From Nanoarchaeota archaeon SCGC AAA011-G17 (lineage in GTDB: Archaea > Nanobdellota > Nanobdellia > SCGC-AAA011-G17): a stretch of 48,865 nucleotides of DNA. This document shows, piece after piece, positions 25,844-48,374 of the stretch (position 1 is its first letter; every line of letters begins with the position of its first letter). The DNA is taken from contig AQRL01000033.1 in NCBI GenBank assembly GCA_000402515.1, positions 1-48,865 of the forward strand, in the 5' to 3' direction. Under the pieces are notes generated by a model. The model was not told the origin of the DNA and did not search any database. It saw only the letters and a program-made list of their open reading frames with translations. A program made the position numbers and the translations under genes.

Positions 25844-25845
25844 AA

Positions 25846-27388: not shown

Positions 27389-28414
27389 TTAGAAGAGGTT
27401 AGAAGTACAAATTTTTTTTATAACTTCTTTTCTTAATTTATAACTATCGGCCCATTTTGCATAAGCATCCCAACCTTGAAAAATTTCAAACAGCTTTTCT
27501 TTAGAAACTTCATTTTTCTTGTATCTATCAAAAACAAATAACATTTTTCTAATATTCCTTTTTCTTAATAGCCTATAATGATAAAAATTCCTAAATCCAA
27601 CAAAATCTATTCCTCTAGACAAAGAGCTTATCTTTGACTTTTCAGGATGAAGCTCAATTTTTAATTTCTCTTTCAGAAATTTGTCAATTTCAGATTTCCA
27701 GAATTCAAGCTGTGACTTTGACTTATGAAGAATTACAAAATCATCAACATATCTAATATAATATTTAGCCTTTAGTTTATGTTTTACAAAATAATCTAAT
27801 TCATTAAGGTAAACATTAGCAAAAAATTGTGAAGTTAGATTTCCCAAAGGCATCCCTGTTCCTTTATTTTTAGAATCAAAATTATTTAATATTAATTTGA
27901 TAAGAGAGATTACTTCTTTATCTTTTATTTTTCTTCTGATAATATTTATCAAAATTTCATGAGAAACAGTTTCAAAATAATGCCTAATATCTGCTTTAAG
28001 GCAGAATGCGTTTGATTTAAAATTATTTGTTACTTTTCTTTTAAAATAATCAAATCGTTTAATTGCAAATAAATTTCCTTTCCCTATTCTATTTGCACAT
28101 GAATCATAAATAAATCCCCTGTCAAAAATTGGTTCAATTATTCTTATTAAATCATGATGAACAATTCTATCCCTAAAATCAGACTTGCTTATCTTTCTAG
28201 TTTTAGGATCTCGCAAAATAAAAGTTTTTAGAGGCAATGGGTTGTAGGTATGATTCTTTAATTCTTCAGATAGTTTAAGCAAATTTACTAAAGTATCTTT
28301 TTCAAATTCAATTACATAATATTTACTTGTTTTGTGTTTTCTAGCTTTTCTCCAAGCTAAAAGTAAATTACTAAGATTATAAATTTCCTGATAAAGTTCA
28401 TTATTAGTTTCCAT
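27389..28414 (-). CDS. DGR reverse transcriptase (DGR-1)
   Basis: RT motifs include LGNLTSQ (the DGR-type [I/L]GxxxSQ) and YIRYVDDFVI (YxDD). TR lies 29 nt upstream. The protein is paralogous to 46221-47324. Confidence 0.9.
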   Translation of the reverse strand: METNNELYQEIYNLSNLLLAWRKARKHKTSKYYVIEFEKDTLVNLLKLSEELKNHTYNPLPLKTFILRDPKTRKISKSDFRDRIVHHDLIRIIEPIFDRGFIYDSCANRIGKGNLFAIKRFDYFKRKVTNNFKSNAFCLKADIRHYFETVSHEILINIIRRKIKDKEVISLIKLILNNFDSKNKGTGMPLGNLTSQFFANVYLNELDYFVKHKLKAKYYIRYVDDFVILHKSKSQLEFWKSEIDKFLKEKLKIELHPEKSKISSLSRGIDFVGFRNFYHYRLLRKRNIRKMLFVFDRYKKNEVSKEKLFEIFQGWDAYAKWADSYKLRKEVIKKICTSNLF

Positions 28415-28443
28415 ATTAGTATAAGAAATCCTGACTTTTGGGC

Positions 28444-28524
28444 TATTCCACGAACCCTGTCGTCGTAGTACAAGTCCCTATTGTTACCATCAAGATCAGA
28501 ACTGTTGTCAAGGCTCCTAAACCA
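28444..28524 (-). repeat. DGR-1 template repeat (TR1)
   Basis: 81 nt aligns without gaps to 28857-28937 at an offset of 413. There are 12 mismatches, all where TR has T on the + strand, i.e. A on the coding strand. Confidence 0.9.
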
Positions 28525-28724
28525 CAGGGAACTTATAGCCAGAATACCATCACAAAAGATTAACTCTTGCCACTGAAGCTTCACGAATGTTGCTTCTGTA
28601 TTTCATGACTTAAAATCAAATTAATGATGTACTAGTAAACTGGCATGTAGTCCAACTTATACTTCACTGATAGTATATCTATATAGTCAGGACATAACTT
28701 TAGAAATAATCTATTTTAAAATAA

Positions 28725-29453
28725 TTATTGTCTTAAACCATCTAGTAGAATCTTTTCAATTCCAGTTAGACCTTTTGTTTTTAGAACTTTTAAGATTTGT
28801 TTTGGAGTGTAAACTTCAGAATTTTTTTTCGTGCCTTCGACACTAACACTATCACGTACCCCACGAACCCTGACGACGCAGTACAAGACCCTACTGTTAC
28901 CACCAAGAACAGAACTGTAGACAAGGCACCTAAACCATATTTGTCTTGCAAAGGATTTTTCCTGCATATCTGCTAACAAAACAGCCATTTCTTTGATTCC
29001 TGCTTCTTCTCTTAAGAATTGCCCGTATTTTTCAGCATTTTCGCCAAAAGCATAAACAGTTATTTCATTATCTTTAAATCTGTTTGTAGGGATTTCTTTT
29101 GATTCTAGGTTGACTGAATCTGCTAATCCTTCCTCAATCTGCTCATCAGTTAAATAAAACTCTTGACCTTTTCTATGACAATCTGTAGCTTCTTTTGCAT
29201 TTGCCATTATTGGTGAATTCTTTGTTAAAAATCTACCTTTATTAAGAATATATAAAACCCCTTCTCTTGTCCAGTTTCCATTTCTAGAGACATAGGCATC
29301 TTTACCTTCCTGTATTCTTAATCTTGCATTTTCTTCTAAAGAAATAATTTTATAGCCATCTTTAACTAATACTTTTTTTCCTTCATCAAAGGGTGCCTCT
29401 GCATAAGCTGATTCTATTCCTCTTGGTTTTACATCAATACTAACTTTTACCAT
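28725..29453 (-). CDS. DGR-1 variable (target) protein, 242 aa, no signal peptide
   Basis: VR encodes aa 173-199 (WFRCLVYSSVLGGNSRVLYCVVRVRGV), against the TR-encoded WFRSLDNSSDLDGNNRDLYYDDRVRGI. A 43-aa conserved tail follows VR. Confidence 0.85.
   Translation of the reverse strand: MVKVSIDVKPRGIESAYAEAPFDEGKKVLVKDGYKIISLEENARLRIQEGKDAYVSRNGNWTREGVLYILNKGRFLTKNSPIMANAKEATDCHRKGQEFYLTDEQIEEGLADSVNLESKEIPTNRFKDNEITVYAFGENAEKYGQFLREEAGIKEMAVLLADMQEKSFARQIWFRCLVYSSVLGGNSRVLYCVVRVRGVRDSVSVEGTKKNSEVYTPKQILKVLKTKGLTGIEKILLDGLRQ
28857..28937 (-). repeat. DGR-1 variable repeat (VR1)
   Basis: See TR1. A-site-only divergence, in frame inside the target gene. Confidence 0.9.
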
Positions 29454-29512
29454 AACTTATTCTAGAAAATAGGTATTTATAAAGCTTTCTATTGTTACTA
29501 CTGATAAATAGA

Positions 29513-29926
29513 TTAATTATTTTTGCTTAACAACTCTTGCAGTTCCTGCTGCAGAGAGCCGGCATGCTGAGCAAATAACTGCAAGTCCTGCTCTAATTTG
29601 TGCGCAATTGCCTGTATCTTTAATGACTGGTCTTTAACAATTTCAATAGTCTCTGCTATTGTTTTTGGAACAACTACATTAGAACCAACATTCATAAGGA
29701 CTTCTTTATTGTTTTTTAATTCTGTTTTAATAAAAATTCCTGGAGAAAGGGCAGTCAGAATTTCATTTTTATCTTTTGATTTTTCAATCTCTTTCAAGGA
29801 TTCTTCCAGATTAGTCAACTCATTTGATTGAGCCTGCAAGGTCATTAACTCCTGCTGATATTCTTTCATCTGCTGTTCTATTATCTGAAATTCAAGATAT
29901 TTCTGCTGAACCTGTTTTTCATCCAT
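29513..29926 (-). CDS. pfdA: Prefoldin alpha subunit
   Basis: Coiled coil, then the beta-hairpin region LSPGIFIKTEL...VLMNVGSNVVVPKTIAETIEIV, then another coiled coil. It follows aIF6 as in many archaea. Confidence 0.8.
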   Translation of the reverse strand: MDEKQVQQKYLEFQIIEQQMKEYQQELMTLQAQSNELTNLEESLKEIEKSKDKNEILTALSPGIFIKTELKNNKEVLMNVGSNVVVPKTIAETIEIVKDQSLKIQAIAHKLEQDLQLFAQHAGSLQQELQELLSKNN

Positions 29927-30587
29927 TTTGAAATCCTAGTGCTGATTCTATTCTCATTATCTCATGACCAGAGGTTAAATCACCTATTATATAGCCATTT
30001 GAATTAGCAATTATGCCAGAACTGACATGAGGATTGCCCATATTAACAGTTCCTATATCTGAAGTAGTTTTAAAAAGCTTTTCTATGTGCTCTATCTCTT
30101 TTTCTGAGGCATCTCTATGAATTATACATCCTTTTGAGGTTATAACCACACAAGAACCGACTGTCGGAGATTCTGCTATCTCTCCCTTAAAAACCTTAAG
30201 ATTAAGTTTTTTTAGCTGGTCTATTGTTTCCTGGTCAAATTCGGGGTTTACCAAACAGGTATCTCCCTTTATTATCATATTATTTCCAAGGGCATTTAAT
30301 TTTGTTTTTATTATTTTATAAGGAATTTTATGCTTTTCTAACTGCTTTATTTCTTCGTCTCTTATTATTTCCGGGACTAATAATAAATCAGAACTTCCTG
30401 TACAGAGTGCTCCAAGCAAATCTGTTCCTGCTATTGAGACTTGATAAACTGGAACACCAAGAACCTGTTTTATTTTTGCAACTATCTTAGAAGAGAGATG
30501 AATCGGCATCAAACAATAAGCATCTGTTGCAAAACAGTATAAGCCTATATTTGGATTTCCATTAAAACTTATTTTTAAAGCATGCAT
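29919..30587 (-). CDS. eif6: Translation initiation factor 6 (aIF6)
   Basis: FNGNPNIGLYCFATDAYCL and a pentameric repeat pattern (GTDLLGALCTG..., LNALGNNMI..., SPTVGSCVV..., NMGNPHVSSGI...). Confidence 0.9.
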   Translation of the reverse strand: MHALKISFNGNPNIGLYCFATDAYCLMPIHLSSKIVAKIKQVLGVPVYQVSIAGTDLLGALCTGSSDLLLVPEIIRDEEIKQLEKHKIPYKIIKTKLNALGNNMIIKGDTCLVNPEFDQETIDQLKKLNLKVFKGEIAESPTVGSCVVITSKGCIIHRDASEKEIEHIEKLFKTTSDIGTVNMGNPHVSSGIIANSNGYIIGDLTSGHEIMRIESALGFQNG

Positions 30588-30588
30588 C

Positions 30589-30942
30589 TTATTCTTCCTC
30601 TATTATAATAAATAATTTTGATCCACCAGCATAACGAGAAACATATTCACTGTGTAATCTCAAGTAATAGACTCCTTCCGGAAGTAAATTAACAAGATAT
30701 GGATCTGCTTTTTCATTAGGTAGCATTAATTGAATTTTACTATCTAATTGTTTTGCCCCATCAAAAAAATTTTCAGAAAACCCCAAGAAAAAATTGGCTT
30801 CTGCTTCTAAACTTGTTGCTCTTATGACTTTTTCATAAAAATATTCTGTTCTTTCTTTAGTTATCTCCAAAAACTCGGATTTACTTATTCTTAATGTTAT
30901 ATCCTGGGAGGAATCAAATTTGGCATGCATCTTATTCTTCAA
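30589..30942 (-). CDS. Hypothetical protein embedded in the ribosomal cluster
   Basis: ORF tightly packed between rpl14e and eif6. I recognise no motif. Confidence 0.4.
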   Translation of the reverse strand: MKNKMHAKFDSSQDITLRISKSEFLEITKERTEYFYEKVIRATSLEAEANFFLGFSENFFDGAKQLDSKIQLMLPNEKADPYLVNLLPEGVYYLRLHSEYVSRYAGGSKLFIIIEEE

Positions 30943-31318
30943 GCTTTTCCTTTATTTCTATTTGTTTGGGTTTTTTCTCTGCTTTAACTTCTTTTTTTGG
31001 CTCTTCTTTTTTCTTTTGTTTTTGTAATGGCTCTTTCTGCTTTCTTATTTTTTTTAATCTTTCAGCAGGTTTTCTTGGCCTTCCTTTCTGCCTTATTGCA
31101 ATACCTTCTGCTTCAAGAACCTTACATACTGCTTCTGTTGATGCTCCTTTTTTTACATCTAATTTTTTTATCGGCTCTAGATGGCTTATATTACATTTTT
31201 TTCTTCTTACATTCCCATCTATCAAGACAAAGTGATCATCGATTTTATCAACTACAATACAATAATTATTTCCATCTCTTCCTGCTGTTTTTACACATAA
31301 TGTCCCTATTTCTATCAT
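30932..31318 (-). CDS. rpl14e: Ribosomal protein eL14 (L14e) with a K/E-rich tail
   Basis: A KOW-like IEIGTLCVKTAGRDGNNYCIVVDKIDDHFVLIDG...RRKKCNISHLEP. Confidence 0.85.
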   Translation of the reverse strand: MIEIGTLCVKTAGRDGNNYCIVVDKIDDHFVLIDGNVRRKKCNISHLEPIKKLDVKKGASTEAVCKVLEAEGIAIRQKGRPRKPAERLKKIRKQKEPLQKQKKKEEPKKEVKAEKKPKQIEIKEKLEE

Positions 31319-31587
31319 TTTTGACTCCTTGTTCTTTCAATTATTTTCTTTCTTGCACATATTGAGCATAGATTTCCGCCAAATGGGCGTGATGGCCTTT
31401 TTTTTGTTTTTGCAATGTTTTTCAGCCTAGAGGCACGAACATGAGAAACTCCCAATAATACAGCCCCACATTCTGCACACTGCGCCTTAGAATCATTTCT
31501 TTTTACGTGATGCAGTTTTACTTTTCCAGCAGGGGTTCTAACAAAAACCCTTCTCTTACTTCTTGATTTATCTTTTCCTGACGGCAT
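31315..31587 (-). CDS. rpl34e: Ribosomal protein eL34 (L34e)
   Basis: KRRVFVRTPAGKVKLHHVKR...CAECGAVL...RPFGGNLCSICARK. Confidence 0.9.
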   Translation of the reverse strand: MPSGKDKSRSKRRVFVRTPAGKVKLHHVKRNDSKAQCAECGAVLLGVSHVRASRLKNIAKTKKRPSRPFGGNLCSICARKKIIERTRSQK

Positions 31588-31588
31588 T

Positions 31589-32119
31589 TTAGTACACCTT
31601 TAAAACCTTTCTTAGTATAATACTAAAGATTATGGCAAAGAGCATATATGACCAAAACCAGCTCAACATACCAAAAATCTTTGGGTCACCAAGGTTTTTA
31701 AATATATCTGAAAACCATTTTATTAAAAATATTAAAGGGGCAATGGTATAAACCAAAGGCTTCATTGTTAGTTCAAAGGTTTTAGGAATATTTTCAAGCT
31801 GTTTTTTCTGGAATTCCATCATCTTTGATGGATCATCTTTATACTTCTTCATCTCTTCTGACATTGCCTTCTGCTCTTCTTTCATATTTTTCAAAGCTTC
31901 CTGATCTGTTGTATATTTCTGAATTATGGTTGTTGCTAATGTTATTAAAAAAGTAATAATAAGGAATCCCCATGAAAAGTCTAATCTTATCAAATAACCA
32001 AGGGTTGGATCAAAAATAAAATGAATTGTATCTTTTATTATAGGGACTGCATCCCATAGCGCAGCAATTAATATACTCAGAAACATTACTAATAACCATA
32101 AAGATATTCCTTTTTTCAT
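31589..32119 (-). CDS. DUF106 / EMC3-TMCO1-like membrane insertase (archaeal YidC-like)
   Basis: Three transmembrane helices with a coiled KNMKEEQKAMSEEMKKYKDDP...QKKQLE loop. The position after secY is conserved. Confidence 0.7.
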   Translation of the reverse strand: MKKGISLWLLVMFLSILIAALWDAVPIIKDTIHFIFDPTLGYLIRLDFSWGFLIITFLITLATTIIQKYTTDQEALKNMKEEQKAMSEEMKKYKDDPSKMMEFQKKQLENIPKTFELTMKPLVYTIAPLIFLIKWFSDIFKNLGDPKIFGMLSWFWSYMLFAIIFSIILRKVLKVY

Positions 32120-33582
32120 TCCCCACCCATCATTTTTCTTAATCCAGGATACATATCCATCATATGATGTTTTGCTATATCTTCATATAACCTGTAAATA
32201 ATCATAACGGTCAATAATAAACCAGTACCATTTGTCAGCGCTCCGAGCAAGTCTGCCGATGCTGCTAGAAATCCTACTGCAATAGCACCCATTATTGTTA
32301 AGGGAAATATATATCTGCTTAAAATTCTTTCCAAGACTCTTTCATCTCTTCTAAATCCTGGAATTTGCAAACCTGAAGCCATTATTTGTTTTGCCTGGCT
32401 TCCTGCATCCATTCCTGCTGTCTGCACCCAGAATATTGAGAATATTACAGCACCGGCTATCATAAATAATGAATAAGTAACTGCCTGCAGCAAAACAATC
32501 CAATTAAATGAGCCAGATGAAAATGCTGCAAATAGTTCAGAAACAATATTTGGAGAGAATGCCCATTTAATCAATCCTGAGACCGGAATATTTCCTGAGA
32601 ACTGCCCAAATATATGCTGGGATATCCAAAACATAATCCCCTGCTGTGCATTTCCAACCCAATTCTGCATCAGCCTTGCCCATAACTGCACATTTGCAAT
32701 CAAAGCAGCGGTTAAAATAACCGGGATATTTGATGTATAAATAAATGCTAACGGCCATCTAATACCATGACCCCTTATTCTGCCAAAACTTAAGGGAATT
32801 TCTACTTTCATAGCCTGTGCGTAAACTGCAAGCACAAAGACCAGTACTGTAGCAAGTATTGTTGCCAAAGCTTTTCCAGCCTCTGTGGGGTTTCCTCCTG
32901 CCAAAGACCTGATTAAAACCCAGATAACTCCTACTGGTGCCTGACCTGTTCCAAATGCCCAGGTTCCTGCACTTGTCAGCGGAGATAATGCCCTGATAAA
33001 TACCTGCTGGGATACTCCTGCTGCTATGAATAGACTTACACCAGAACCAAAACCCCATTTATTGATAACTTCATCTAAATATAATACTATCAAACCACCT
33101 AATGTTAATTGTGCAACTAATAAAAATTCCATCTGCCTGAACAATGCTGGTGCAAGGGCAGGGTCTGGTGACAAACCACCCATAAATACATAGATTGATG
33201 CTTCGAATATTATAAAGAAGATTGCCAAAATTTTTTGTATACCCTGGAAAAATACTCTTCCTTCATGCGTTGTTGTGTCTATATTTATTAACCCCGAGCC
33301 TTTTAATAACTGCAAAACAATGGATGCAGTTACGATTGGACCGATACCAAGCGATAGTATGGAACCAAAGGTTGCTCCAAGAATAATTGATAAAAATTCA
33401 AACTGCGATAAAGCGTTCTGACCTAAGCCATATAATGGGATGGATGATAAAACAAAAAAAAGTACAAGAACAATAAGTGTCCACTTCAGTTTTTCCTTAA
33501 AAGGAAGATGTTTTTGTGATGAACCTTTTATTTCCGGCAGATTTGCCAGTATATTATTAAGCATTGACAACGGAGCCACCAA
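32116..33582 (-). CDS. secY: Preprotein translocase subunit SecY
   Basis: A 10-TM protein (...LPFKEKLKWTL..., GIGPIVTASIVLQLL). Operon position after rpl15. Confidence 0.93.
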   Translation of the reverse strand: MVAPLSMLNNILANLPEIKGSSQKHLPFKEKLKWTLIVLVLFFVLSSIPLYGLGQNALSQFEFLSIILGATFGSILSLGIGPIVTASIVLQLLKGSGLINIDTTTHEGRVFFQGIQKILAIFFIIFEASIYVFMGGLSPDPALAPALFRQMEFLLVAQLTLGGLIVLYLDEVINKWGFGSGVSLFIAAGVSQQVFIRALSPLTSAGTWAFGTGQAPVGVIWVLIRSLAGGNPTEAGKALATILATVLVFVLAVYAQAMKVEIPLSFGRIRGHGIRWPLAFIYTSNIPVILTAALIANVQLWARLMQNWVGNAQQGIMFWISQHIFGQFSGNIPVSGLIKWAFSPNIVSELFAAFSSGSFNWIVLLQAVTYSLFMIAGAVIFSIFWVQTAGMDAGSQAKQIMASGLQIPGFRRDERVLERILSRYIFPLTIMGAIAVGFLAASADLLGALTNGTGLLLTVMIIYRLYEDIAKHHMMDMYPGLRKMMGGE

Positions 33583-34003
33583 CCTGTTCTATTTTTTCCT
33601 TTGCTTTTGATGAAAAGTATGGAATGATTATCTTATATTTATGTGTTGGGTTTCCTGTGCTTAACAGTTTATTGAATTTTGTTTTTTTAAAGTCTATTGT
33701 AATCACATCTTTTTCCTGAATTGCTATTTTTTTGTCTAATAATTTTTGTAATTTTTTCTCAATGTAATCTATTGTTGTTGCATTAGTCTTTTTTCTTGAT
33801 TTAGATATAAACCCTCTTTTTCCAAAATAATCTGCTCCAAAAATCTTGAATGCCCACTGCCTTTTATGGTCTGCTCTTTTTCCTGTCCCGGCTAAACCTC
33901 TTCCACCCCTATTTCCGGCTCCTCTATGCTTCTTCTTAGCTCCCCAACCGTGAGTATGAGAACCTCTCTGCCTTATGTTTTTCCTTCTTTTATAGACAGT
34001 CAT
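33557..34003 (-). CDS. rpl15: Ribosomal protein uL15
   Basis: RGSHTHGWGAKKKHRGAGNRGGRGLAGTGKR. Confidence 0.92.
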   Translation of the reverse strand: MTVYKRRKNIRQRGSHTHGWGAKKKHRGAGNRGGRGLAGTGKRADHKRQWAFKIFGADYFGKRGFISKSRKKTNATTIDYIEKKLQKLLDKKIAIQEKDVITIDFKKTKFNKLLSTGNPTHKYKIIIPYFSSKAKEKIEQVGGSVVNA

Positions 34004-34004
34004 T

Positions 34005-34493
34005 TTATAACATCCTGCTAATTATATCATTTATTTTTTCTTTTCTATATCCCAATGCCCCACCCAAACTAAACGGCCTTTTTATTCCCTTTCTTTCAAA
34101 ACCTTTTGTTGGGGGCTTTAGCCTAAAAAATAATTTTAATCCTGGTATGTCCTTAAGCTCTTTTTTAAATGAAAAGAATTCTTTTGTAAACTGCTCAAAG
34201 GTTAGATTTGTTTTTTCTTTTAAATAATCAGAAGTTAAATTTTTATTTCTTGGAAGTTTAGCTCTAGTCTCTAATAATTGCTTGAATGCTTCTTCGCTAA
34301 TTTCCCCCCAAGTAATATAATCCTTAGCTTTCTTTATCATACCAACATAATGCGGATTATTTTCAATTATTACACAGCTATTTTTTCTGTATAACCTAAG
34401 CATATTTAAGGTGTCTTTGATGTCCTTTCTGACACCTATGCTTCCCCTGATCCTAATTATCGCTAACCTTTTCTTTTCCATCTTTTCCACCAA
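34005..34493 (-). CDS. rpl30: Ribosomal protein uL30
   Basis: LAIIRIRGSIGVRKDIKDTLNMLRLYRKN. Confidence 0.92.
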   Translation of the reverse strand: MVEKMEKKRLAIIRIRGSIGVRKDIKDTLNMLRLYRKNSCVIIENNPHYVGMIKKAKDYITWGEISEEAFKQLLETRAKLPRNKNLTSDYLKEKTNLTFEQFTKEFFSFKKELKDIPGLKLFFRLKPPTKGFERKGIKRPFSLGGALGYRKEKINDIISRML

Positions 34494-35220
34494 CAGTTAC
34501 ACCTGCTTTTTCAATATATTGTGCTGGAATCTTAATTTTATTTAATTTTTTTAATGCGTTAAAGCATGCATAAAGAAGATTTAATTTTGTTGTTGTATTC
34601 CCTCTTGCTTTTGAATAAACATCCCTTATTCCTGCAAATCCCAAAATCTTCCTTACCTGGCCTTCACTAACCAAACCTACTCCTTTTGGTGCGGGCATTA
34701 ATGTAATAACAATACTTCCTGATTTTCCCTGGACCTTGAATGGAATTGAGTGATGAGTTGAACAACCACATTCCCATGAACCACATCCACGAACTACCTG
34801 GATAATATTCAGCTTTGCCTGCCTGATTGCTTTTTCTCTTGCCGGCACTGTTTCTTTTGCTTTTCCTTTTCCTACACCAACATAACCATCTTTATTACCA
34901 ACTACCGCTAATGTAGAGAATTTCGGCTTGTTTCCTTCTCTGGTTTTCTTTTGTGTTTGTTTCCAGATACTTCTCTTCCCTCCACCAAACTTACCCTTTG
35001 ATTGACCTATTGTTAATAAATCATATTGAAGGTCTGGAAGCAAAGTATCCACTATTTCTGACTCAAGTATTTTTTGACCTGTAAATAAAATTTGATTAAT
35101 ATTTGTTATTTCTCCGCTTTTTACTTTTTTACCCAATGCTGTTTTGGGTTTCCATTTCTCTTTATCAAATGTTTTTTCTAATCTTCTTATTCCTGTCTCT
35201 TCACGATTTGTTTTAACCAT
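34453..35220 (-). CDS. rps5: Ribosomal protein uS5
   Basis: FSTLAVVGNKDGYVGVGKGKAKETVPAREKA...GSIVITLMPAPKGVGLV. Confidence 0.93.
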   Translation of the reverse strand: MVKTNREETGIRRLEKTFDKEKWKPKTALGKKVKSGEITNINQILFTGQKILESEIVDTLLPDLQYDLLTIGQSKGKFGGGKRSIWKQTQKKTREGNKPKFSTLAVVGNKDGYVGVGKGKAKETVPAREKAIRQAKLNIIQVVRGCGSWECGCSTHHSIPFKVQGKSGSIVITLMPAPKGVGLVSEGQVRKILGFAGIRDVYSKARGNTTTKLNLLYACFNALKKLNKIKIPAQYIEKAGVTVGGKDGKEKVSDN

Positions 35221-37714: not shown

Positions 37715-37721
37715 TTTATCC

Positions 37722-39508: not shown

Positions 39509-39509
39509 T

Positions 39510-40466: not shown

Positions 40467-40469
40467 TGT

Positions 40470-40784
40470 CTAAATTGTCGTGACTTTTATTGACCCAGGT
40501 AAAAAACCCATCTTTATCAGCTCTCCCTTAATCTTAGCTGAATGCCTCCCCTGCAACTCAATCTTTCCGCCCTTTACTGTTCCTCCACATGCGAATTTAC
40601 TTTTCAGTTTTTTTGCAAGGTCTTTGATGTTTATTTCCTTCCCATCAATTCCTTCTATCACTGTTGAAATTTTTCCAAATCTCTTTTTTTCCTCTTTGAT
40701 GTAAATTTGTTGAGATTCTTTTGCTATGGTCTCACAGACACATAACTCTTTAGGCAACCCACACGTTGCACATATTTCACTCAT
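40470..40784 (-). CDS. Translation initiation factor aIF1 (SUI1)
   Basis: N-terminal CATCGLPKELCVC, then RFGKISTVIEGID...LAKKLKSKFACGGTVKGGKIELQG. Confidence 0.9.
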   Translation of the reverse strand: MSEICATCGLPKELCVCETIAKESQQIYIKEEKKRFGKISTVIEGIDGKEINIKDLAKKLKSKFACGGTVKGGKIELQGRHSAKIKGELIKMGFLPGSIKVTTI

Positions 40785-40788
40785 TTGT

Positions 40789-40995
40789 TTATTGACTACC
40801 TCCTTTTGGTTTATTTCTTAGGAATGTGTTTATCCTAGCAATTGTTCTTTTGATAATCCTAATTCTTGATGGATTTTCCATATTTGTTCCTGTTGATCTT
40901 TGAGCATTTAATTTAATTAACTCTTTTTTCAAATCTTCATATTTTGAAGTTAGTTCAGCTTCACTTGCTTTTGCTAGATCCTTTTGTTTTTTCAT
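40789..40995 (-). CDS. rpl29: Ribosomal protein uL29
   Basis: ELTSKYEDLKKELIKLNAQRSTG...RIRIIKRTIARINT. Confidence 0.9.
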   Translation of the reverse strand: MKKQKDLAKASEAELTSKYEDLKKELIKLNAQRSTGTNMENPSRIRIIKRTIARINTFLRNKPKGGSQ

Positions 40996-41728
40996 TTTCT
41001 ACCTTTTTCTTTCTGGTTTTTGGTTTAGTCTCTTTCTTTTCTTCAACCTGTTCTTCTTTCTCTTCTTTTACTTCCTCAACAGGTTCTTCTTTAATTTCAG
41101 GGGCTTTTTCAATAATTTTCTGTTCTTCTTTTTTTGGATGAATATCTATTTTATCAGGAAGGTCTACTGTTGGAGGCATTATTTTTACTTTTATTCCTAT
41201 AACTCCTGATTTTGTTATTGCAACTGCCAGCCCCTTAACAACCTTAGAAACTGCAATATCTCCTGATTTCTTCAAATAACCATTCATGAAACGCCATGTT
41301 TTTGCTCTTGAACTTGGTACTTTACCAGAAACTATAATTTCTGCTCCTAAAGCACCTGCATCCATTATTGATTGTAATGTTTTGTAAGCAACTGATTTGA
41401 AATGCTTTGGCCCAAATTTTTCTATGGCATATGCTATTTTTTCTGATATTGACTGGGCATCAAAATATGGATCCTCAATCTCCCCAATTTCTATCTGGGG
41501 GTTTTCCATGCTGAATCTTTTCTTTAAAACAGCAGTTAATCTATTTATGTTCTGACCTTTTCTTCCAACAACTAATCCCGGTCTTGATGTATAGATTGTT
41601 ACTTTATCTCCTAATGGTGTTCTTTGTATTTTTGTGTGACTATATCCTGTTTTTTCAAATTCCTTGGCTATAAATTCCTTTATCTGGAACTCTTTCATTT
41701 TTTGCGCCAAAATTTTTCTTTCTATCAT
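40961..41728 (-). CDS. rps3: Ribosomal protein uS3 with a K/E-rich C-terminal tail
   Basis: KH domain: RTPLGDKVTIYTSRPGLVVGRKGQNINRL... Confidence 0.93.
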   Translation of the reverse strand: MIERKILAQKMKEFQIKEFIAKEFEKTGYSHTKIQRTPLGDKVTIYTSRPGLVVGRKGQNINRLTAVLKKRFSMENPQIEIGEIEDPYFDAQSISEKIAYAIEKFGPKHFKSVAYKTLQSIMDAGALGAEIIVSGKVPSSRAKTWRFMNGYLKKSGDIAVSKVVKGLAVAITKSGVIGIKVKIMPPTVDLPDKIDIHPKKEEQKIIEKAPEIKEEPVEEVKEEKEEQVEEKKETKPKTRKKKVENEKTKGSSKSK

Positions 41729-42180
41729 TTTTGTGTTTTTGTTTCAGTTTTTTTTACTGATTCTTTTGGTTGTATTTTTTTTACTTCCCTGACTTTTATT
41801 TTCAAATGTGTTCTCTTTGCAGTTATTCCTCTGGTTCTTCCATAATGCCATGTTTTCGGACCTTTATTTGCAACTAAGTAAATTATCTTGTATGGCTGAA
41901 CCATTCCTTTTTGTTTTGCATTTGCTTCAACATCTTCTATAATTTCCAAAAAATATTTTGCTGTAGCAATAGGATATCTTCCTGCAGCGATATTCCCCTT
42001 CTTATGGCTGATATCATGATAATAGCGCTTAAATGGAACTGCTACTTTCTTTTCAAGAACCTTGAGCAATAGATTCTTTGCTTTATCTGTATTCTTCCCT
42101 CTAAGAAAAGAGGATATCTCTACTGAATTCTTCATAGAGATAGGTGCAGATTCCTTTGATGCTGTTGCTATATTTTCCAT
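41725..42180 (-). CDS. rpl22: Ribosomal protein uL22
   Basis: APISMKNSVEISSFLRGKNTDKAKNLLLKVLEKKVAVPFKRY. Confidence 0.92.
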   Translation of the reverse strand: MENIATASKESAPISMKNSVEISSFLRGKNTDKAKNLLLKVLEKKVAVPFKRYYHDISHKKGNIAAGRYPIATAKYFLEIIEDVEANAKQKGMVQPYKIIYLVANKGPKTWHYGRTRGITAKRTHLKIKVREVKKIQPKESVKKTETKTQK

Positions 42181-42181
42181 T

Positions 42182-42581
42182 TTACTTTACAGATATTGCT
42201 GAGCTTGATTTTGTAGCACCTATACCTGGTGCTGAGTGCTGAACTCTCTTCCTGGTCATTGTTAATTCCCCTAAACGATGCCCAATCATTTCTTCTGTTA
42301 TTATTGCTGGAACAAACTCCTTACCATTATGTATTGCTATTGTTGCTCCAATCATTTCAGGGATTATAATACAGTCTCTGCAATGTGTTTTTACCGGCTT
42401 TCTGATTCCTTTTTTTTAATGATTTTCTTATTTTTTCAAGTAATTTTTTTTGAATAGGTGTGAATCCCCTCATTAGGGACCTTCTTTCGTGTGATGGAGT
42501 CAATTGTGCAAAGTCTTTTATTGACATATTTTTTAATTCTTCAGTTATTTTTCCCTTGAATTTGAATTGTTTTATTACCAT
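42182..42581 (-). CDS. rps19: Ribosomal protein uS19, frame interrupted by one extra base in an A8 tract
   Basis: ORF 42357-42581 gives the N-terminal half (...[10 protein letters not shown]) and then runs out of frame. Reading T8 at 42410-42417 (+ strand) as 7 yields ...[77 protein letters not shown], with the stop at 42182-42184. Total length is 400 nt, i.e. 399 plus 1. Confidence 0.9.
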
Positions 42582-42582
42582 T

Positions 42583-43317
42583 TTACTTCTTCCTACCTGT
42601 CCTACTTGCCCTAATCATGCCTACATTTCTTCCTGGCGGAGCATTTGCTGGTGCAATAGATGATGCTTTACCCCCAAATGTCGGGCCACCACGCCCTGAA
42701 CCAAATGGATGGTCTGTTGCATTCATTGCTCCACCTGATGTGATTGGATATAATTTGTTTCTTGCTTTCATAGCATAATATCTTTTTCCAGCCTTCAAAA
42801 AAGGCTTGTTTTTTCTTCCTGAGCCGGCGATTATTCCTACTGTCGCCCTGCATTCTGGATGAAATTCTTTTTGTTTTTTTGATGGAAATTTTAATAATAT
42901 TTTATTTCTAACTCTTCCTACAATCATTGCAAATCCCCCAGAAGTTCTAATAAATTTTCCATTATCCCCTGGTGAGGATTCTATATTATAAACTTGAGTA
43001 CCTTCTGGAATACTTTTTAATGGCAAGGTATTACCGGGATATATTGGTGCATTGATCCCGGAAGCGATTTTTTGATTAACTCTTAACCCTTCTGGGGCGA
43101 TAATATAACCTCTTTCTCCTGTTTCATACTCAATTGCTGCCAAAGGAGCTGAATGACCAGGGCAATGCACTAACTCTTTTACTATACCATAAACAACGCC
43201 TTGTTTTTCTTTTTCATCATAAGGCCTATGCTGCGGCTTTCCTTTGTATTTATGACCCGGAGATCTGTATCTTGGACCTCCTCTTCCACGTGCCTGACTT
43301 ACAAGTCTTTTACCCAT
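42583..43317 (-). CDS. rpl2: Ribosomal protein uL2
   Basis: GKRLVSQARGRGGPRYRSPGH...GGAMNATDHPFGSGRG. Confidence 0.94.
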   Translation of the reverse strand: MGKRLVSQARGRGGPRYRSPGHKYKGKPQHRPYDEKEKQGVVYGIVKELVHCPGHSAPLAAIEYETGERGYIIAPEGLRVNQKIASGINAPIYPGNTLPLKSIPEGTQVYNIESSPGDNGKFIRTSGGFAMIVGRVRNKILLKFPSKKQKEFHPECRATVGIIAGSGRKNKPFLKAGKRYYAMKARNKLYPITSGGAMNATDHPFGSGRGGPTFGGKASSIAPANAPPGRNVGMIRASRTGRKK

Positions 43318-43318
43318 T

Positions 43319-43579
43319 TTACATCAATCCTAATTGTGTAGCAACATCAATTGCCGGTGTTTCTGGTGATAACTTAACATAAGCTCTTTTTTCACCTTTT
43401 GGTGTGTTTAAAGTATTTACTTTAACGATTTTTATTTTGAATAATTTTTCTAAAGCCCCCTTTATTTCTGCTTTCTTTGCTTTTTTATCAACTACAAATA
43501 TCAGCTTGTTTTCTGACTCCATTATTCTAACTGCTTTTTCTGTTGATACGGGATATTTGATTATTGAATATTCATTCAT
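43319..43579 (-). CDS. rpl23: Ribosomal protein uL23
   Basis: IIKYPVSTEKAVRIMESENKLIFVVDKKAKKAEIKGALEKLF. Confidence 0.92.
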   Translation of the reverse strand: MNEYSIIKYPVSTEKAVRIMESENKLIFVVDKKAKKAEIKGALEKLFKIKIVKVNTLNTPKGEKRAYVKLSPETPAIDVATQLGLM

Positions 43580-44379
43580 TTGAAGAGCTCCTCTGATTTC
43601 ATTCTTTCAATTGCATCTTTTGTCCAGATAACTAATCTTCCCGGTGTTGTTCCCGGTGCAAGCAACTCTGCATTTAATGAATTTACAGGGACTATCTGAA
43701 TTCCCTGCAGGTTTCTTGATGATTTTTCTAATAAGCATGATTTTGCTATTACAATTAATGGGCCTGTTTTAATCTTGTATTTTCTCCCTCTGCTTTTTCC
43801 CTTACCTGCCCTTACTTTCTTTACTGATATTCTTTTTAATTCTTCTTTTAGCCCTATTTTTTCCAATACTTCCTTTACTTGTTTTGTTTTAGTTAGTGAT
43901 TCAAATTTTGATTCTAAGATTAAAGGAAGAGTAATTGAAAATTTGTGATGCTGCTTTACTAATTCTGGATTTAAAGTAGCAGAAATTGCGGATCTTATTG
44001 CTTTTCTGTTTTCTTTTTTGTTAATTTTTCTTGTAAAATCTTTATCCAGCTGTGGCGGGTGTGCTTTTCTACCTCCAACTGCTCCTGGCATAAATGCTCC
44101 AACCCAACCAAATTGGGTTCCTCTCTTCCATAATGACTTTCTTGGAACTCTTGAAATCCCATGATTGTAAGCTCCTTTGTATTCCCCTCTTCTTCTTGAT
44201 AATTTTGCAGATGATCTCATTCCTGCTCTTGGGAAAGAACCATATGACTGGCGGTTATTTGACTGCAATATTATAACTGCCCTCTTTATCAGATTTTTAT
44301 TCAATGGCTCGGAAAACTGCTTAGGCAATTCTATTGTTTCAGTTTCTTTTCCGGTGATATCTAATATTTTTGCTTTCAT
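43576..44379 (-). CDS. rpl4: Ribosomal protein uL4
   Basis: GSFPRAGMRSSAKLSRRRGEYKGAYNHGISRVPRK...GGRKAHPP. Confidence 0.93.
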   Translation of the reverse strand: MKAKILDITGKETETIELPKQFSEPLNKNLIKRAVIILQSNNRQSYGSFPRAGMRSSAKLSRRRGEYKGAYNHGISRVPRKSLWKRGTQFGWVGAFMPGAVGGRKAHPPQLDKDFTRKINKKENRKAIRSAISATLNPELVKQHHKFSITLPLILESKFESLTKTKQVKEVLEKIGLKEELKRISVKKVRAGKGKSRGRKYKIKTGPLIVIAKSCLLEKSSRNLQGIQIVPVNSLNAELLAPGTTPGRLVIWTKDAIERMKSEELFK

Positions 44380-45323
44380 TTTAGTATAATATTTTTAATT
44401 TCTGGAATAATTTTCAGTGCTTTATTCGGTCTTATTGCTTCAATAAATCTTATTGCTCTTTTCTTTGGTCCAGGAATAGACCCCCTTATAAGAATGTAAT
44501 CATTTTTTACAAACCCGTATTTATGAAATCCCTGTTTTGGATTGATAGTTGAAGGATTAGAATCTATTTTTAATATCAGTTTATTAAAATCAAGGCGTGT
44601 GTGATAACCCATTTTACCTGGATGCGGGACTGCCCATATTGATCTTGAGTGCCATGGACCCAAAGAACCAACCCCTCTTTTTACTTTTTCTGATTTGTGC
44701 TGCCTTAATCTTGTACCAAATCTTTTTGTAGTCCCTTGAAATCCTTTTCCTGTTGATACTGCGTGAACGTCAACTAATTCCCCTTCTTTGAAAACATCTG
44801 ATAATTTTATTTCTTTTTCCAAAAATTGTTTTGCAATTGATAATTGCTCTTCTTTACTTCCTGATAAAGCAAGCTCAAATATTTCCGGCTTTTTCTTTCC
44901 AATAGCTGTAAGTTTTGGCTGGGTATAAACCTGCAACCTTAATTCATCAAATTCTGTTTCTTTTTTTTCTGATTGTTTTTTTGGCAGTTTTATTTTTCTT
45001 GCTAATTCTTTATTTAGATTTTTTACTGGTATTTCAGAAACAACTTTTAAACCATAAGAAGTATTTTTGTAAAAACGAAGAGAAAGAGGCTTTAATGGCG
45101 GACACTCAATAATCGTTACCGGTGTTGAAATATCCATGCCTTTTGTTACTTTTGTTGATGTATCTTTCATTATAACATGAGCCATACCAACTTTGTAACC
45201 TGCAAAGCCTAATAATTTAGCTCCAGCTAATTTGGACCATGCTTTTATTCTCGGTATTTCTCTTTTGGCTCTTTTTCTTGGCCAAAATTGTAAACTCCCA
45301 TGTCTTGGACTATGTCTTTTCAT
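44376..45323 (-). CDS. rpl3: Ribosomal protein uL3, first gene of the superoperon
   Basis: HSPRHGSLQFWPRKRAK...GYKVGMAHV...GKGFQGTTKRFG...GPWHSRSIW. Confidence 0.94.
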   Translation of the reverse strand: MKRHSPRHGSLQFWPRKRAKREIPRIKAWSKLAGAKLLGFAGYKVGMAHVIMKDTSTKVTKGMDISTPVTIIECPPLKPLSLRFYKNTSYGLKVVSEIPVKNLNKELARKIKLPKKQSEKKETEFDELRLQVYTQPKLTAIGKKKPEIFELALSGSKEEQLSIAKQFLEKEIKLSDVFKEGELVDVHAVSTGKGFQGTTKRFGTRLRQHKSEKVKRGVGSLGPWHSRSIWAVPHPGKMGYHTRLDFNKLILKIDSNPSTINPKQGFHKYGFVKNDYILIRGSIPGPKKRAIRFIEAIRPNKALKIIPEIKNIILK

Positions 45324-45335
45324 TCTGTTCCTATT

Positions 45336-45554: not shown

Positions 45555-45752
45555 ATGGCCAAAAAAAGCGCTTTAGACTGGATTGCTATGGTTCTATTGA
45601 TTATTGGTGGTCTAAATTGGGGATTAGTCGGGTTATTTAATTACAACCTTGTAGAATCTCTTTTTGGGTCTATACCCATAATCGGGACTATAGTATATGT
45701 ATTAGTAGGATTGTCTGCACTTTATATGATATATACCGCAGCAAAGATGTAA
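45555..45752 (+). CDS. DUF378 family small membrane protein
   Basis: LDWIAMVLLIIGGLNWGLVGLFNYNLVESLFG is the DUF378 signature. Confidence 0.7.
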   Translation: MAKKSALDWIAMVLLIIGGLNWGLVGLFNYNLVESLFGSIPIIGTIVYVLVGLSALYMIYTAAKM

Positions 45753-45761
45753 TTCTTTTTT

Positions 45762-46193
45762 TTATTTCATTTTTTTTGTAATATCAATATTCTTCCCACA
45801 CTTAGAGCACTGAAAACGAACTGCTTCTACTGTTTCTTTTTTTCCTGTTTCTTCATTAAGTCTTTGTACTTTTTTTCTTTTGAAAGATGCCTGCAATTCA
45901 TCTGAATGCTGGCAGTGCGGACAAATATACTCAATATTAATATTCAATGTATCCTCATATTCCCCACAGTCAACTGTATATTTACATTCTGGACAGATGT
46001 ATTCTTTTGCCCTTATCTTTGGTCTGCCTGTTTTTTCATCTTTTGGCTTCCCCATAATTCCTTTTCCGCATTTTGGACATTTGCCTCTGAAGACCCAAGA
46101 TTTTATCTTTCCATTTTCAAATAACCTATTAGTAAAATAGATACATTCATCCATTGATTTTGGCTGTTGAAGAGTCATTCTAATCTTATTCAA
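45762..46193 (-). CDS. Zinc-ribbon protein (four CxxC pairs), directly downstream of the DGR-2 RT
   Basis: CPKCGKG, CPECKY, CPHCQH and CSKCGK. It starts 27 nt after the RT stop on the same strand. Confidence 0.5.
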   Translation of the reverse strand: MNKIRMTLQQPKSMDECIYFTNRLFENGKIKSWVFRGKCPKCGKGIMGKPKDEKTGRPKIRAKEYICPECKYTVDCGEYEDTLNINIEYICPHCQHSDELQASFKRKKVQRLNEETGKKETVEAVRFQCSKCGKNIDITKKMK

Positions 46194-46220
46194 ATTTGTT
46201 GTTTATAAAAATTTCTAATA

Positions 46221-47324
46221 TTAAATTTTTGTTTCTCTTAATAATCTATTCACTTCTATTGATGAAATCTGATTAGAAAACATATACTCAAAATCTTTAG
46301 TGAACTGCTTTCTTAATTTATAAGTATCTGCATGCTTAGCATAAGCAATCCATCCTTCAAAACTTGCATAAATTTTATCATAATCAATCTTCCTTTCATT
46401 TAATTTGTATTTTGTTAATTTATTTCTCATCTTTTTTATATTTCTTTTATTTAATAACTTATGATAATAAAATACCCTGAAGCCCAATAAACTAATTCCT
46501 TTGCTTAATAAAATTATTTTGGATTTATCTGGATGCAATTCTAAGTTTATTGTTTTTAAAAAGGCACCAATCTTATTTTTATAATCAAATAATACCCCAT
46601 AATTATTATGAATTATCACAAAATCATCTACATATCTAATATAATATTTTGCCTTTAATTTATGTTTTACAAAATAGTCTAATTCATTAAGATAAACATT
46701 AGCAAAGAACTGGGAAGTTAGATTTCCCAATGGCATTCCTATCCCTTTATTTTTGGAATTAAAATTATCTAGTATTAATTTAATAAGCAATATTATTTTT
46801 TCATCTTTTATTTTTCTTTTAATAATCTCAATTAAAACTTTGTGAAAAACAGTATCAAAATAGTGCTTAATATCTGCCTTTAAAATATAAGCTTCCCTTG
46901 TATTATTCTTAGTAACTTTCCTTTTAAAATAATCAAATCTTTCCAATGCCTTAAATGCCCCCTTAAATTTTCTATTTGCATACGAATCAAAGATAAATAT
47001 TTTTTCAAATATTGGTTCAATAATATTACACAAAACATGGTGAATAATTCTGTCTTTAAAATCAGACTTGCTTATTTTTCTGGTCTTTGGATCCCTAAGG
47101 ATGAAGGTTTCCAAAGGTTTTGGCCTATAAGAATGAAACATAATTTCTGACCTTAATTGAAGCAGATTTTCCTTAAGATTCTTCTCAAACTCAACAACAT
47201 AATCTTTTTTTGTCTTATTTTTTCTTGCTTTTTTATATGCTAGTTTAATATTTTCATAACTACATAGAGAAATCCATAAATTAGTGTAAGTATGCATTTG
47301 ATTATTAAATGCCTTGGCAAACAC
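46221..47324 (-). CDS. DGR reverse transcriptase (DGR-2)
   Basis: GMPLGNLTSQFFANVYLNELDYFVKHKLKAKYYIRYVDDFVI is identical to the DGR-1 RT over this stretch. By alignment to RT-1 the likely true start is the ATG at 47297, which leaves a 32-nt TR-RT spacer. Confidence 0.9.
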   Translation of the reverse strand: MFAKAFNNQMHTYTNLWISLCSYENIKLAYKKARKNKTKKDYVVEFEKNLKENLLQLRSEIMFHSYRPKPLETFILRDPKTRKISKSDFKDRIIHHVLCNIIEPIFEKIFIFDSYANRKFKGAFKALERFDYFKRKVTKNNTREAYILKADIKHYFDTVFHKVLIEIIKRKIKDEKIILLIKLILDNFNSKNKGIGMPLGNLTSQFFANVYLNELDYFVKHKLKAKYYIRYVDDFVIIHNNYGVLFDYKNKIGAFLKTINLELHPDKSKIILLSKGISLLGFRVFYYHKLLNKRNIKKMRNKLTKYKLNERKIDYDKIYASFEGWIAYAKHADTYKLRKQFTKDFEYMFSNQISSIEVNRLLRETKI

Positions 47325-47329
47325 AGGAT

Positions 47330-47416
47330 TATTCCAACAAAACGAGCATTGTTGTTGATGTTGTTGTTACCATTAAGACCATTGTTGCAGTTGTCGCCAA
47401 CGAACAGCAAACGCCC
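47330..47416 (-). repeat. DGR-2 template repeat (TR2)
   Basis: 87 nt aligns without gaps to 47748-47834 at an offset of 418. There are 10 mismatches, all at TR T on the + strand (coding-strand A). TR encodes the AAY-rich GRLLFVGDNCNNGLNGNNNINNNARFVGI. Confidence 0.92.
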
Positions 47417-47606
47417 GCTATATAGCCTGCTTATCCTTAATTGCAATGCTGTTTCATCTGTTCAATATTTACTAAGTGTCACAGCTGTATTTTATAACCA
47501 TTAAATGGCCATGATAAACAGGCGTGTAGCCCTGAGATATCTAACTATCACAAATCAAGTTAAATAATACCAAGACAAAGTAAAAAAGAGAAAGAAGTTT
47601 AAAAAT

Positions 47607-48374
47607 TTATTTGTATAATGCTTTTATTTTATTTTCATATTCTTTTCTAGTTGCTTTTGGAACAAAATTTTTTGAAACCTTCAAAATTTGCTCTATAGTC
47701 GGTGCTGAAATTTTTTGCGCAGTGCCTTCGGCACTAGCACTACCACGTACCCCAACAAAACGAGCATAGTTGCCGATGCCGTAGTTACCAATAAGACCAT
47801 TGTTGCAGTAGTCGCCAACGAACAGCAAACGCCCTAATGGCTCATCTTTTAAATCATCACAATGCCAGATTCCTATATTATTTCCATAAACCTGTTTAAA
47901 TTTTTCAAGATATCTTTGGGCTCTTTCCTCTCCGCCAATAAAAGGGATAGTTTGGGGATGCTCCAATGCTCTTTCAACTGGAATTACTCCTGAACTTGAA
48001 CTTTTAAGCTTATCATAATCAATAACAAAAACATTCTTATTATCCCCTAAATCCAATAATCTCTGAAATTCATCTACCGGCATAACTCCTGCACCGTTTA
48101 TTCTCTCTGCATTTCTTATATTTTCAGGATTAGAAAGATAATTATCAACATGGACATATACAACTACTGGGTTTCCCTGCTTGGTTCTTCCTGTTGCCCT
48201 TATGCTTGGTGCAGTAAGCCAGTTGCTTAATAAGCTTGAACCTTTAGTTGCTAAAATTTTTGCGTCTATCAGTTCAGGCATGAATAAAGCATGACCGTAT
48301 TTCTGACAGCTTTCTAAGGCTGTAGCCATATCACTATTATAAAACTCTTTTGCTTGCTTTCTGTTTATTTCCAT
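47607..48374 (-). CDS. DGR-2 variable (target) protein, 255 aa, no signal peptide
   Basis: VR encodes aa 181-209 (GRLLFVGDYCNNGLIGNYGIGNYARFVGV). The 46-aa tail is conserved with target 1 (...EGT...P..ILKV.K...). Confidence 0.85.
   Translation of the reverse strand: MEINRKQAKEFYNSDMATALESCQKYGHALFMPELIDAKILATKGSSLLSNWLTAPSIRATGRTKQGNPVVVYVHVDNYLSNPENIRNAERINGAGVMPVDEFQRLLDLGDNKNVFVIDYDKLKSSSSGVIPVERALEHPQTIPFIGGEERAQRYLEKFKQVYGNNIGIWHCDDLKDEPLGRLLFVGDYCNNGLIGNYGIGNYARFVGVRGSASAEGTAQKISAPTIEQILKVSKNFVPKATRKEYENKIKALYK
47748..47834 (-). repeat. DGR-2 variable repeat (VR2)
   Basis: See TR2. Confidence 0.92.

Follow-up and report, generated by a model that had tools for sequence, protein, structure and literature searches.

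Two active diversity-generating retroelements at the ends of a ribosomal-protein gene cluster in a nanoarchaeal single-cell genome, probably the published DUSEL4 DGR1 and DGR2

Contig AQRL01000033.1 of Nanoarchaeota archaeon SCGC AAA011-G17 (assembly GCA_000402515.1), a single-cell amplified genome of which 48.9 kb (positions 1 to 48,865; hereafter the window) were visible, carries two diversity-generating retroelements (DGRs), one at each end of a ribosomal-protein gene cluster. In both cassettes a target gene containing the variable repeat (VR) is followed by an RNA motif, RT-16, a template repeat (TR) and a gene for a reverse transcriptase (RT). Both had been called complete DGRs in an original prediction made without database searches, and this was confirmed: all mismatches between TR and VR fall at TR adenines of the coding strand (10/10 in cassette 1 and 8/8 in cassette 2), and both enzymes match the Pfam family RVT_1 (E = 5.8e-20 for RT1 and 2e-21 for RT2). 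The RTs share the motifs LGNLTSQ and YVDD, which fit the [LIV]GxxxSQ motif 4 and the YxDD of DGR-type enzymes, and they fall in the DGR clade (Paul et al. 2015, Nat Commun 6:6585). In each cassette the initiation of mutagenic homing (IMH) sequence at the 3' end of VR, TGGGGTA, differs from its counterpart at the 3' end of TR (IMH*), TGGAATA. With a probability of about 0.85, these are two complete, currently active DGRs of the DPANN type and are the same as DGR1 and DGR2 of contig 3 of DUSEL4 Nanoarchaeota OTU1.

The product of target gene 2 is identical to chain A of PDB entry 5IOO (100% over residues 1-255, E = 1.4e-172) and carries the published AvpA motifs GNPVVVYVH, HPQTIPFIG and RFVGV. 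AvpA, a soluble monomer, is the target protein of OTU1, Contig 3 DGR2, from the DUSEL4 Nanoarchaeota single-cell genomes; its VR was assigned to residues 181-203, the following 46 residues are disordered in the crystal, and a hairpin/cruciform sits inside this post-VR coding extension (Handa et al. 2016). At least four DGRs per genome, grouped by RT and target homology, were described earlier; their target genes contain GRA-loop hairpins, and their IMH and IMH* have the forms TGGGGT and TGGAAT (Paul et al. 2015, Nat Commun 6:6585). The identification of the locus by sequence comparison rests on the identity with 5IOO and on these descriptions: the locus appears to be the same, as do the order of target gene, TR and RT, the presence of several DGRs per genome and the 46-residue tail. 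The original prediction had regarded the arrangement as novel and unusual, which was not borne out: the locus is that of the published DGR1 and DGR2, target 2 is the crystallised AvpA, and the features listed as non-canonical are all in print, the ribosomal-operon context being the sole one unmentioned. The system is already known and has been rediscovered here, and a sequence-only reading was able to recognise the DGRs correctly. The 2015 and 2016 papers differ from the present account in that they mention neither the ribosomal operon (the word 'ribosomal' has no occurrence in the main text of Paul et al. 2015) nor the RT-16 RNA, and in that they left the fold of the other targets open, whereas target 1 is predicted below to be AvpA-like.

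Contigs L005, L006 and L007, near-identical relatives from other samples in which the genes recur in unchanged order, allowed both cassettes to be compared between populations. The RT1 protein is 100% identical in the near-identical relative, and both template repeats are unchanged in these contigs (TR1 in L005, although its VR differs, and TR2 in L006 and L007). Target gene 1 (729 nt) differs from its L005 counterpart at 17 nucleotides, all within nt 516-581 and thus in VR (nt 517-593) or 1 nt before it; 16 of the 17 are at positions of TR adenines. For target gene 2 (768 nt), 15 of the 16 differences from L006 and L007 lie in VR, and those 15 are all at TR adenines. Both cassettes are active, and direct population-level evidence for this is added here to the published record. 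The variation indirectly supports a mechanism in which an adenine-mutagenised cDNA would replace VR at the IMH and hairpin.

In a single-cell amplified genome whose two RTs share long identical stretches of peptide, it might be suspected that one of the cassettes arose by faulty assembly or is a fossil, inactive copy of its partner. We consider this so improbable as to be negligible. The variation of both VRs between samples at TR adenines rules out an assembly duplication as well as a fossil copy, both cassettes reappear, independently and with unchanged flanks, in contigs of other samples, and the RTs are just 62% identical, the targets 27% over one third of their length. An assembly duplication is further excluded by the DNA alignment of the cassettes, in which only about 77% of the aligned columns are alike and indels are many. 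The predicted paralogy of the RTs, with its long identical stretches, holds up at this level of identity, and the 42-residue stretch that had been quoted is identical in the two proteins. Among the 7991 homologues of RT1, the best are DPANN RTs with 65-76% identity; RTs of other genomes are 70-76% identical to RT1, compared with 62% for RT2. Since RT1 is closer to the RTs of other genomes than to RT2, the cassettes are lineages that separated anciently and are not products of a recent duplication; they would represent anciently diverged DGRs with different target families.

Insertion polymorphism was seen beside both cassettes. IS605-type TnpB (OrfB) elements are present in the relatives (L005 16064-17486, L006 3743-4936 and L007 496-1689), inserted about 4 kb downstream of RT1 and just upstream of cassette 2, and are absent from these places in the window.

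Each cassette is a self-contained unit of about 2.1 kb (Table 1), which would comprise six parts, namely a promoter, the target gene, a second TATA-like element, RT-16, TR with IMH*, and the RT gene; within the target gene, VR would be followed by the IMH, a GAA-loop hairpin and a tail of about 45 codons. An internal VR with such a tail had been predicted for both targets and was found in both, the 46-residue tail of AvpA being already published. Covarying GC stems with GAA loops are present at other loci as well. The RT2 ORF (open reading frame) opens at a GTG (47324), and the ATG at 47297 is its most plausible start. The gap between TR and RT is short, as predicted, but the proposed length of 29-32 nt is reached only when IMH* is counted within TR; from the end of the repeat to the RT ATG it measures 33 and 36 nt in the two cassettes. 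No additional, remote VR was found in the window. Upstream of both target genes lies a common element, AGAAAG[C/G]TTTATAAATA, the same 17-mer with one C/G difference, which resembles an archaeal promoter with a transcription factor B recognition element (BRE) and a TATA box and has three matches at no more than two mismatches against 0.19 expected. In most loci a TTTTTAAA-like box stands about 25 nt 5' of the RT-16 5' end. These elements suggest that the cassettes likely have independent archaeal promoters and that the RT-16-TR-RT transcript would start at the 5' end of RT-16.

Table 1. Positions in the window of the two DGR cassettes and of the genes between them
Feature	Positions	Strand	Evidence
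Target gene 1, 242 aa, predicted AvpA-like C-type-lectin-fold variable protein	28725-29453	-	
VR1, aa 173-198 of target 1; 77-nt repeat of TR1 with 10 mismatches	28861-28937	-	
IMH (TGGGGT) and weak GAA-loop hairpin GTGTC-GAA-GGCAC within the target 1 ORF	28831-28863	-	
RT-16 RNA motif (RF03019), structured leader directly 5' of TR1	28530-28692	-	cmscan
TR1, template repeat	28448-28524	-	
Post-TR1 element: IMH* AAUAGCC, then AGUCAGGAU; AGUCAGGAU predicted to pair with the RT-16 5' end (GUCCUGACU)	28428-28447	-	fold, covariation
RT1, 341 aa, DGR-type reverse transcriptase with LGNLTSQ and YVDD	27389-28414	-	RVT_1
BRE/TATA-like element AGAAAGCTTTATAAATA, putative promoter, 21 nt 5' of the target 1 ATG	29474-29490	-	
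Target gene 2 (AvpA), 255 aa	47607-48374	-	
VR2, aa 181-208 of AvpA; 83-nt repeat of TR2 with 8 mismatches	47752-47834	-	
IMH (TGGGGT) and hairpin AGTGCC-GAA-GGCACT within the target 2 ORF	47721-47754	-	
RT-16 RNA motif (RF03019) directly 5' of TR2	47417-47575	-	cmscan
TR2	47334-47416	-	
Post-TR2 element: IMH* AAUAAUCC, then UGCCAAGGCA; UGCCAAGGCA predicted to pair with the RT-16 5' end (GUCUUGGUAU)	47310-47333	-	fold, covariation
RT2, 358 aa from ATG 47297	46221-47297	-	RVT_1
BRE/TATA-like element AGAAAGGTTTATAAATA, putative promoter, 5' of target 2	48413-48429	-	
Archaeal rpl3 to SecY, eIF6 and pfdA cluster between the cassettes	29513-45323	-	Pfam
Zinc-ribbon ORF, 143 aa, between RT2 and rpl3	45762-46193	-	
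DUF378 ORF between RT2 and rpl3	45555-45752	+	

A scan with the RT alignment of one genome per GTDB species yielded 80 loci, nearly all from DPANN and other uncultured archaea. TR was mapped in 51 loci, including both cassettes of the window, and 647 of the 662 TR/VR mismatches in them are at TR adenines. In this set the median distance from the end of TR to the RT ATG is 26 nt, VR lies 300-500 nt upstream within an ORF on the same strand, and the non-coding spacer between the target stop codon and TR has a median length of 218 nt. When the ORFs within 2.5 kb of the RT were clustered, one large family emerged, that of the targets of about 250 aa (68 ORFs in 48 loci, both window targets among them); no other cluster was found in more than nine loci, and no accessory gene was conserved across the 80. 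Within this clade of DPANN RTs a target-TR-RT layout lacking Avd is the rule, found in some 50 other genomes, and it matches architecture A1, in which TR and RT form a core on one strand with neither avd nor HRDC, MSL or CH1 and which makes up 29% of surveyed DGRs (Wu et al. 2018, legend). What had been described as a non-canonical minimal layout is the clade norm in the 51 loci; nor is it minimal where RNA is concerned, as RT-16 fills the spacer of both cassettes. Architecture B3, TR-(avd)-RT, was by contrast reported for 90% of the CPR/DPANN set in Wu et al. (2018), and the median gap of the clade studied here leaves no room for its avd. This clade-wide demonstration that no accessory gene accompanies these RTs is a further addition to what was known.

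In the window itself, the absence of an Avd-like gene held under profile search: neither Pfam Avd nor HRDC matched the spacer ORFs or any other scanned ORF. It is nevertheless conceivable that the cassettes do not work without such a factor and that the accessory protein is an ORF overlapping TR, the zinc-ribbon protein encoded 27 nt after RT2, or the product of a gene elsewhere in a genome visible only over 48.9 kb. Small ORFs between target gene and RT were flagged in 2015 for an Avd-like isoelectric point (pI) and mass (Paul et al. 2015). Both spacer ORFs meet this description (75 aa, pI 8.1, 8.9 kDa and 68 aa, pI 9.9, 7.7 kDa) and are almost certainly those that were flagged, on pI and mass alone. 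They were rejected as Avd, as they are the TR read in the VR frame from GTG or TTG starts inside RT-16, match no Pfam family and run out of frame into the RT gene. The reverse-strand ORFs over TR were likewise dismissed, at 70 aa in cassette 2 and only 41 aa in cassette 1 and with no conservation between the two. The basic zinc-ribbon protein was discarded as an accessory factor as well, its homologues being limited to the near-identical L006 and L007. Across the 80 genomes, the 2.5 kb around the RT hold no conserved accessory gene; avd is missing from 26% of DGRs, and profile searches of such avd-less genomes did not detect it in trans (Wu et al. 2018). We judge an accessory protein unlikely. 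The 143-aa zinc-ribbon protein itself has several zinc ribbons and a pI of 9.3.

The spacer of both cassettes matches the Rfam family RF03019 (RT-16) over its full length (model positions 1-158 of 158), with 87.2 bits (E = 1.9e-12) in cassette 2 and 71.5 bits (E = 3.3e-9) in cassette 1, well above the gathering score of 50, and in both the 3' end of the motif abuts TR. The motif exceeds the gathering threshold in 28 of 32 further DPANN DGR loci, and in the 10 of them with TR mapped upstream of the RT the match ends no more than 6 nt from the start of TR. Its position in L021, L036 and L045, on the opposite strand and downstream of the RT, indicates that RT-16 is a separable module. The motifs RT-1 to RT-19 have been described only as lying near RT genes, and only RT-10 has been tied to a DGR, as the spacer of that of phage BPP-1 (Weinberg et al. 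2017); no paper in the literature searched treats RT-16 together with DGRs. In DPANN DGRs we assign this orphan motif to the sequence flanking TR on its 5' side, and the predicted helices would enclose TR. The 5' strand of RT-16 also pairs with the sequence after TR, a feature outside the Rfam model.

Two stretches of RT-16 can base-pair with the 20-25 nt that follow TR. One helix, H0, joins GUCCUAGC at the extreme 5' end of the motif to the post-TR sequence GCUAGGA; the second, H1, joins the RT-16 sequence GGGCUA, just before the invariant CACGCC, to UAGCC of IMH*. Folding of the two window RNAs yields H0 in both the minimum free energy and the centroid structure. The 5' strand of RT-16 was missed by automatic detection in several loci, both window cassettes among them, and the pairing was instead tested on an alignment. 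Cognate duplexes exceed non-cognate ones in stability, the observed mean being reached in 0 of 5000 permutations. In an unfitted MAFFT alignment that covered 16 loci and left out the TR core, RNAalifold predicts both helices; 92.3% of the cells are paired, compared with 73.8% in shuffles (0/500) and no more than 44% after sliding of the partner. Double changes are seen at 6 of the 8 pairs of H0 and 4 of the 7 pairs of H1, for example CUACA/AAUAG in some loci and CCACA/AAUGG in others. The VR-side IMH, GGGUACGU, is incompatible with H1, which offers a structural reason for the difference between IMH and IMH*.

According to the covariation, the two long-range helices would clamp TR. The DGR of Bordetella phage BPP-1 (mtd-avd-TR-brt) provides the closest comparison, as it shares the adenine-specific transfer from TR to VR, the IMH and IMH*, the hairpin after VR, a target with a C-type lectin fold and a TR flanked by mutually pairing RNA, the avd:Sp 'cPRT Stop' duplex. 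By analogy, H0 and H1 resemble cPRT Stop and the adjacent template:primer duplex. The nanoarchaeal cassettes differ from BPP-1 in having no Avd, an internal VR and a target of another lectin subclass; furthermore, the 140-nt Sp of BPP-1, which holds the RT-10 motif, lies 3' of TR, whereas the RT-16 of about 160 nt lies 5' of it and only some 30 nt separate TR from the RT ATG. Pairing between upstream and downstream RNA is, as a general idea, published for Avd-containing DGRs. We tentatively propose, at somewhat less than even odds, that RT-16 is a dedicated cis-scaffold of the DPANN DGR template RNA, which would clamp TR, sequester IMH* and substitute for Avd, so that the DGR would have two components, RT and RNA, with the duplex partner for the TR 3' end supplied from upstream. 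On the analogy with BPP-1, the pairing with RT-16 may position the TR 3' end for the RT without an Avd protein.

Several points weigh against the mechanism as a whole. The Rfam model pairs the same 5' strand locally, in a helix P1 that is itself supported by covariation, so the long-range helices must compete or alternate with P1. The covariation test comprised just 16 sequences, all phylogenetically related, and the z-scores of the whole-RNA folds (-1.4 and -1.3) are not significant. We infer the transcription start, the priming site and the independence from Avd alike, and an Avd-like factor could be encoded outside the window. The placement of RT-16, together with the accessory-free clade, makes Avd-independent retrohoming testable in vitro, which would be of interest for the engineering of compact DGRs as targeted mutagenesis tools.

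The two target proteins align only over their C-terminal 108 or so residues (27% identity, E = 2e-5), a region that includes the post-VR motif quoted in the original prediction. AlphaFold2 models built on the family alignments had mean confidence (pLDDT) values of 91.4 for target 1 and 91.5 for target 2, and the best Foldseek match of the target 1 model in the PDB is 5IOO itself (E = 3.2e-7, TM-scores 0.58 and 0.66), C-type lectin domains ranking after it with weak scores. At the sequence level the match of target 1 to AvpA is weak (E = 0.53 against the PDB and 2e-5 pairwise), and no Pfam family matched target 1. Structure prediction, which had been suggested as a check, thus gave confident models for both proteins, and target 1, whose fold was left open in 2016, is confidently predicted to be AvpA-like as well. 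Target 1 has 405 homologues and target 2 has 194; both families are confined to DPANN, and both show a hypervariable block at VR. The shared tail motif, GVR..S.S.EGT, is present as predicted, but the similarity of the target sequences does not extend beyond the C-terminal region, and the motif is dictated by the DNA cis-elements and not by shared protein function: the IMH TGGGGTACGT encodes G-V-R, and the hairpin GCC-GAA-GGC-ACT encodes A-E-G-T.

Both targets are small, as had been noted, and the predicted absence of a signal peptide and of a transmembrane segment was upheld. No hydrophobic segment was found in either, the maximal 19-residue Kyte-Doolittle means being 1.24 and 0.71, compared with 2.35 for SecY, and the lectin fold begins within the first 8 or so residues of both (residue ~4-8), which leaves no classical signal peptide. 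From the missing signal peptide, cytoplasmic action of the targets is plausible. The AlphaFold2 models fold the post-VR tail as two helices behind a flexible linker. A different possibility, towards which we lean less than away, is that the variable proteins work in contact with the host or on the cell surface, through non-classical export or through docking of the tail onto an envelope complex. A role in symbiosis was proposed by Handa et al. (2016), most cellular DGR targets are surface proteins (Roux 2021), the conserved two-helix tail after its linker would suit such docking, and some RT-less family members are found in operons with ABC_tran, CARDB and MacB_PCD/FtsX proteins (L001 and L003) or beside a protein with PKD and cadherin domains (L088). 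Against this stand the missing signal peptide and transmembrane segment, with no room for a leader before a fold that starts at residue ~4-8, the soluble, monomeric state of AvpA and the many family members encoded among cytoplasmic housekeeping genes.

The length of the post-VR tail is bimodal over the 51 loci, at either 4-15 or 31-71 codons, so just a part of the target superfamily has the two-helix C-terminal extension of AvpA. Among five RT-less target copies examined, three keep the IMH and the GAA-loop hairpin, as expected for orphans diversified in trans. RT-less homologues of the two targets (L088 7001-7738, L089 7001-7708 and L091 7001-7798) have an IMH (GGGGTA) and a GC-rich GAA-loop hairpin, and have the appearance of orphan targets that a DGR located elsewhere in their genomes would diversify. 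The RT-less homologues of target 1 in L001 (7966-13543) and L003 (8187-16759) have a degenerate hairpin; in their operons they are accompanied by genes for an ABC ATPase, for a CARDB/NPCBM-like protein and for a pair of MacB_PCD/FtsX permeases, which hints at a link to an envelope complex.

The 15.8-kb rpl3-to-pfdA operon between the cassettes encodes, among others, L3, L4, L2, SecY, an EMC3/YidC-like protein, L34e, eIF6 and prefoldin, and the complete list of the cluster's genes is visible in L005, L006 and L007. The cassettes do flank it on both sides, on the minus strand, as the original prediction had it, but cassette 2 is not directly upstream: two genes, for the zinc-ribbon protein and for an oppositely oriented DUF378 protein, separate RT2 from rpl3. 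No tRNA or other RNA gene was found between RT2 and rpl3.

The position of the cassettes could in principle be functional, if they were co-transcribed or co-regulated with the ribosomal cluster or kept beside it by selection. Target gene 1 begins 59 nt after pfdA on the same strand, and the synteny is retained in the near-identical relatives. Adjacency to rpl3 or pfdA, for which the original prediction had suggested a search of DPANN genomes, was found only in L014, L031 and L032 of the 80 loci. The RT of L014 shares the strand of rpl3 and is situated 300 nt upstream of it; those of L031 and L032 are next to the SecY end of the cluster and convergent with SecY. In L090 a cassette is inserted between the genes for L11 and Spt5/SecE. 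The remaining 77 loci lack such an adjacency. A naive model that counts 2 of ~900 intergenic slots as adjacent would give about 0.2 loci where three are observed, and a weak positional preference may exist. L031 and L032 share one arrangement, however, so the independent events are few; the contexts of the target families are otherwise heterogeneous and those of the target homologues highly varied; both targets have the common BRE/TATA-like element of their own; one of the two genes between RT2 and rpl3 is on the opposite strand; and genomes as small as these consist in large part of ribosomal and other information genes. A functional position is accordingly quite improbable, and the bracketing of the ribosomal cluster is very probably a positional coincidence; the placement of the cassettes at its ends would most likely reflect a tiny genome dense in information genes.

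The L090 insertion (5489-9876) consists of a target-2-like gene, an RT gene and a PIN toxin pair between the genes for L11 and Spt5 (NusG)/SecE, another conserved translation-gene cluster.

Directly downstream of RT1 (24988-27306, minus strand), the window encodes a 486-aa primase-small-subunit/PrimPol-like protein with a zinc-ribbon insertion and a Cas4/Dna2-like PD-(D/E)XK nuclease, in the same order as in L005. Elsewhere in the window, a weak LAGLIDADG-like ORF adjoins the gene for a class I aminoacyl-tRNA synthetase, and a 590-aa protein with Lamin Tail Domains is encoded (2675-3352 and 19343-21115, respectively, both on the plus strand).

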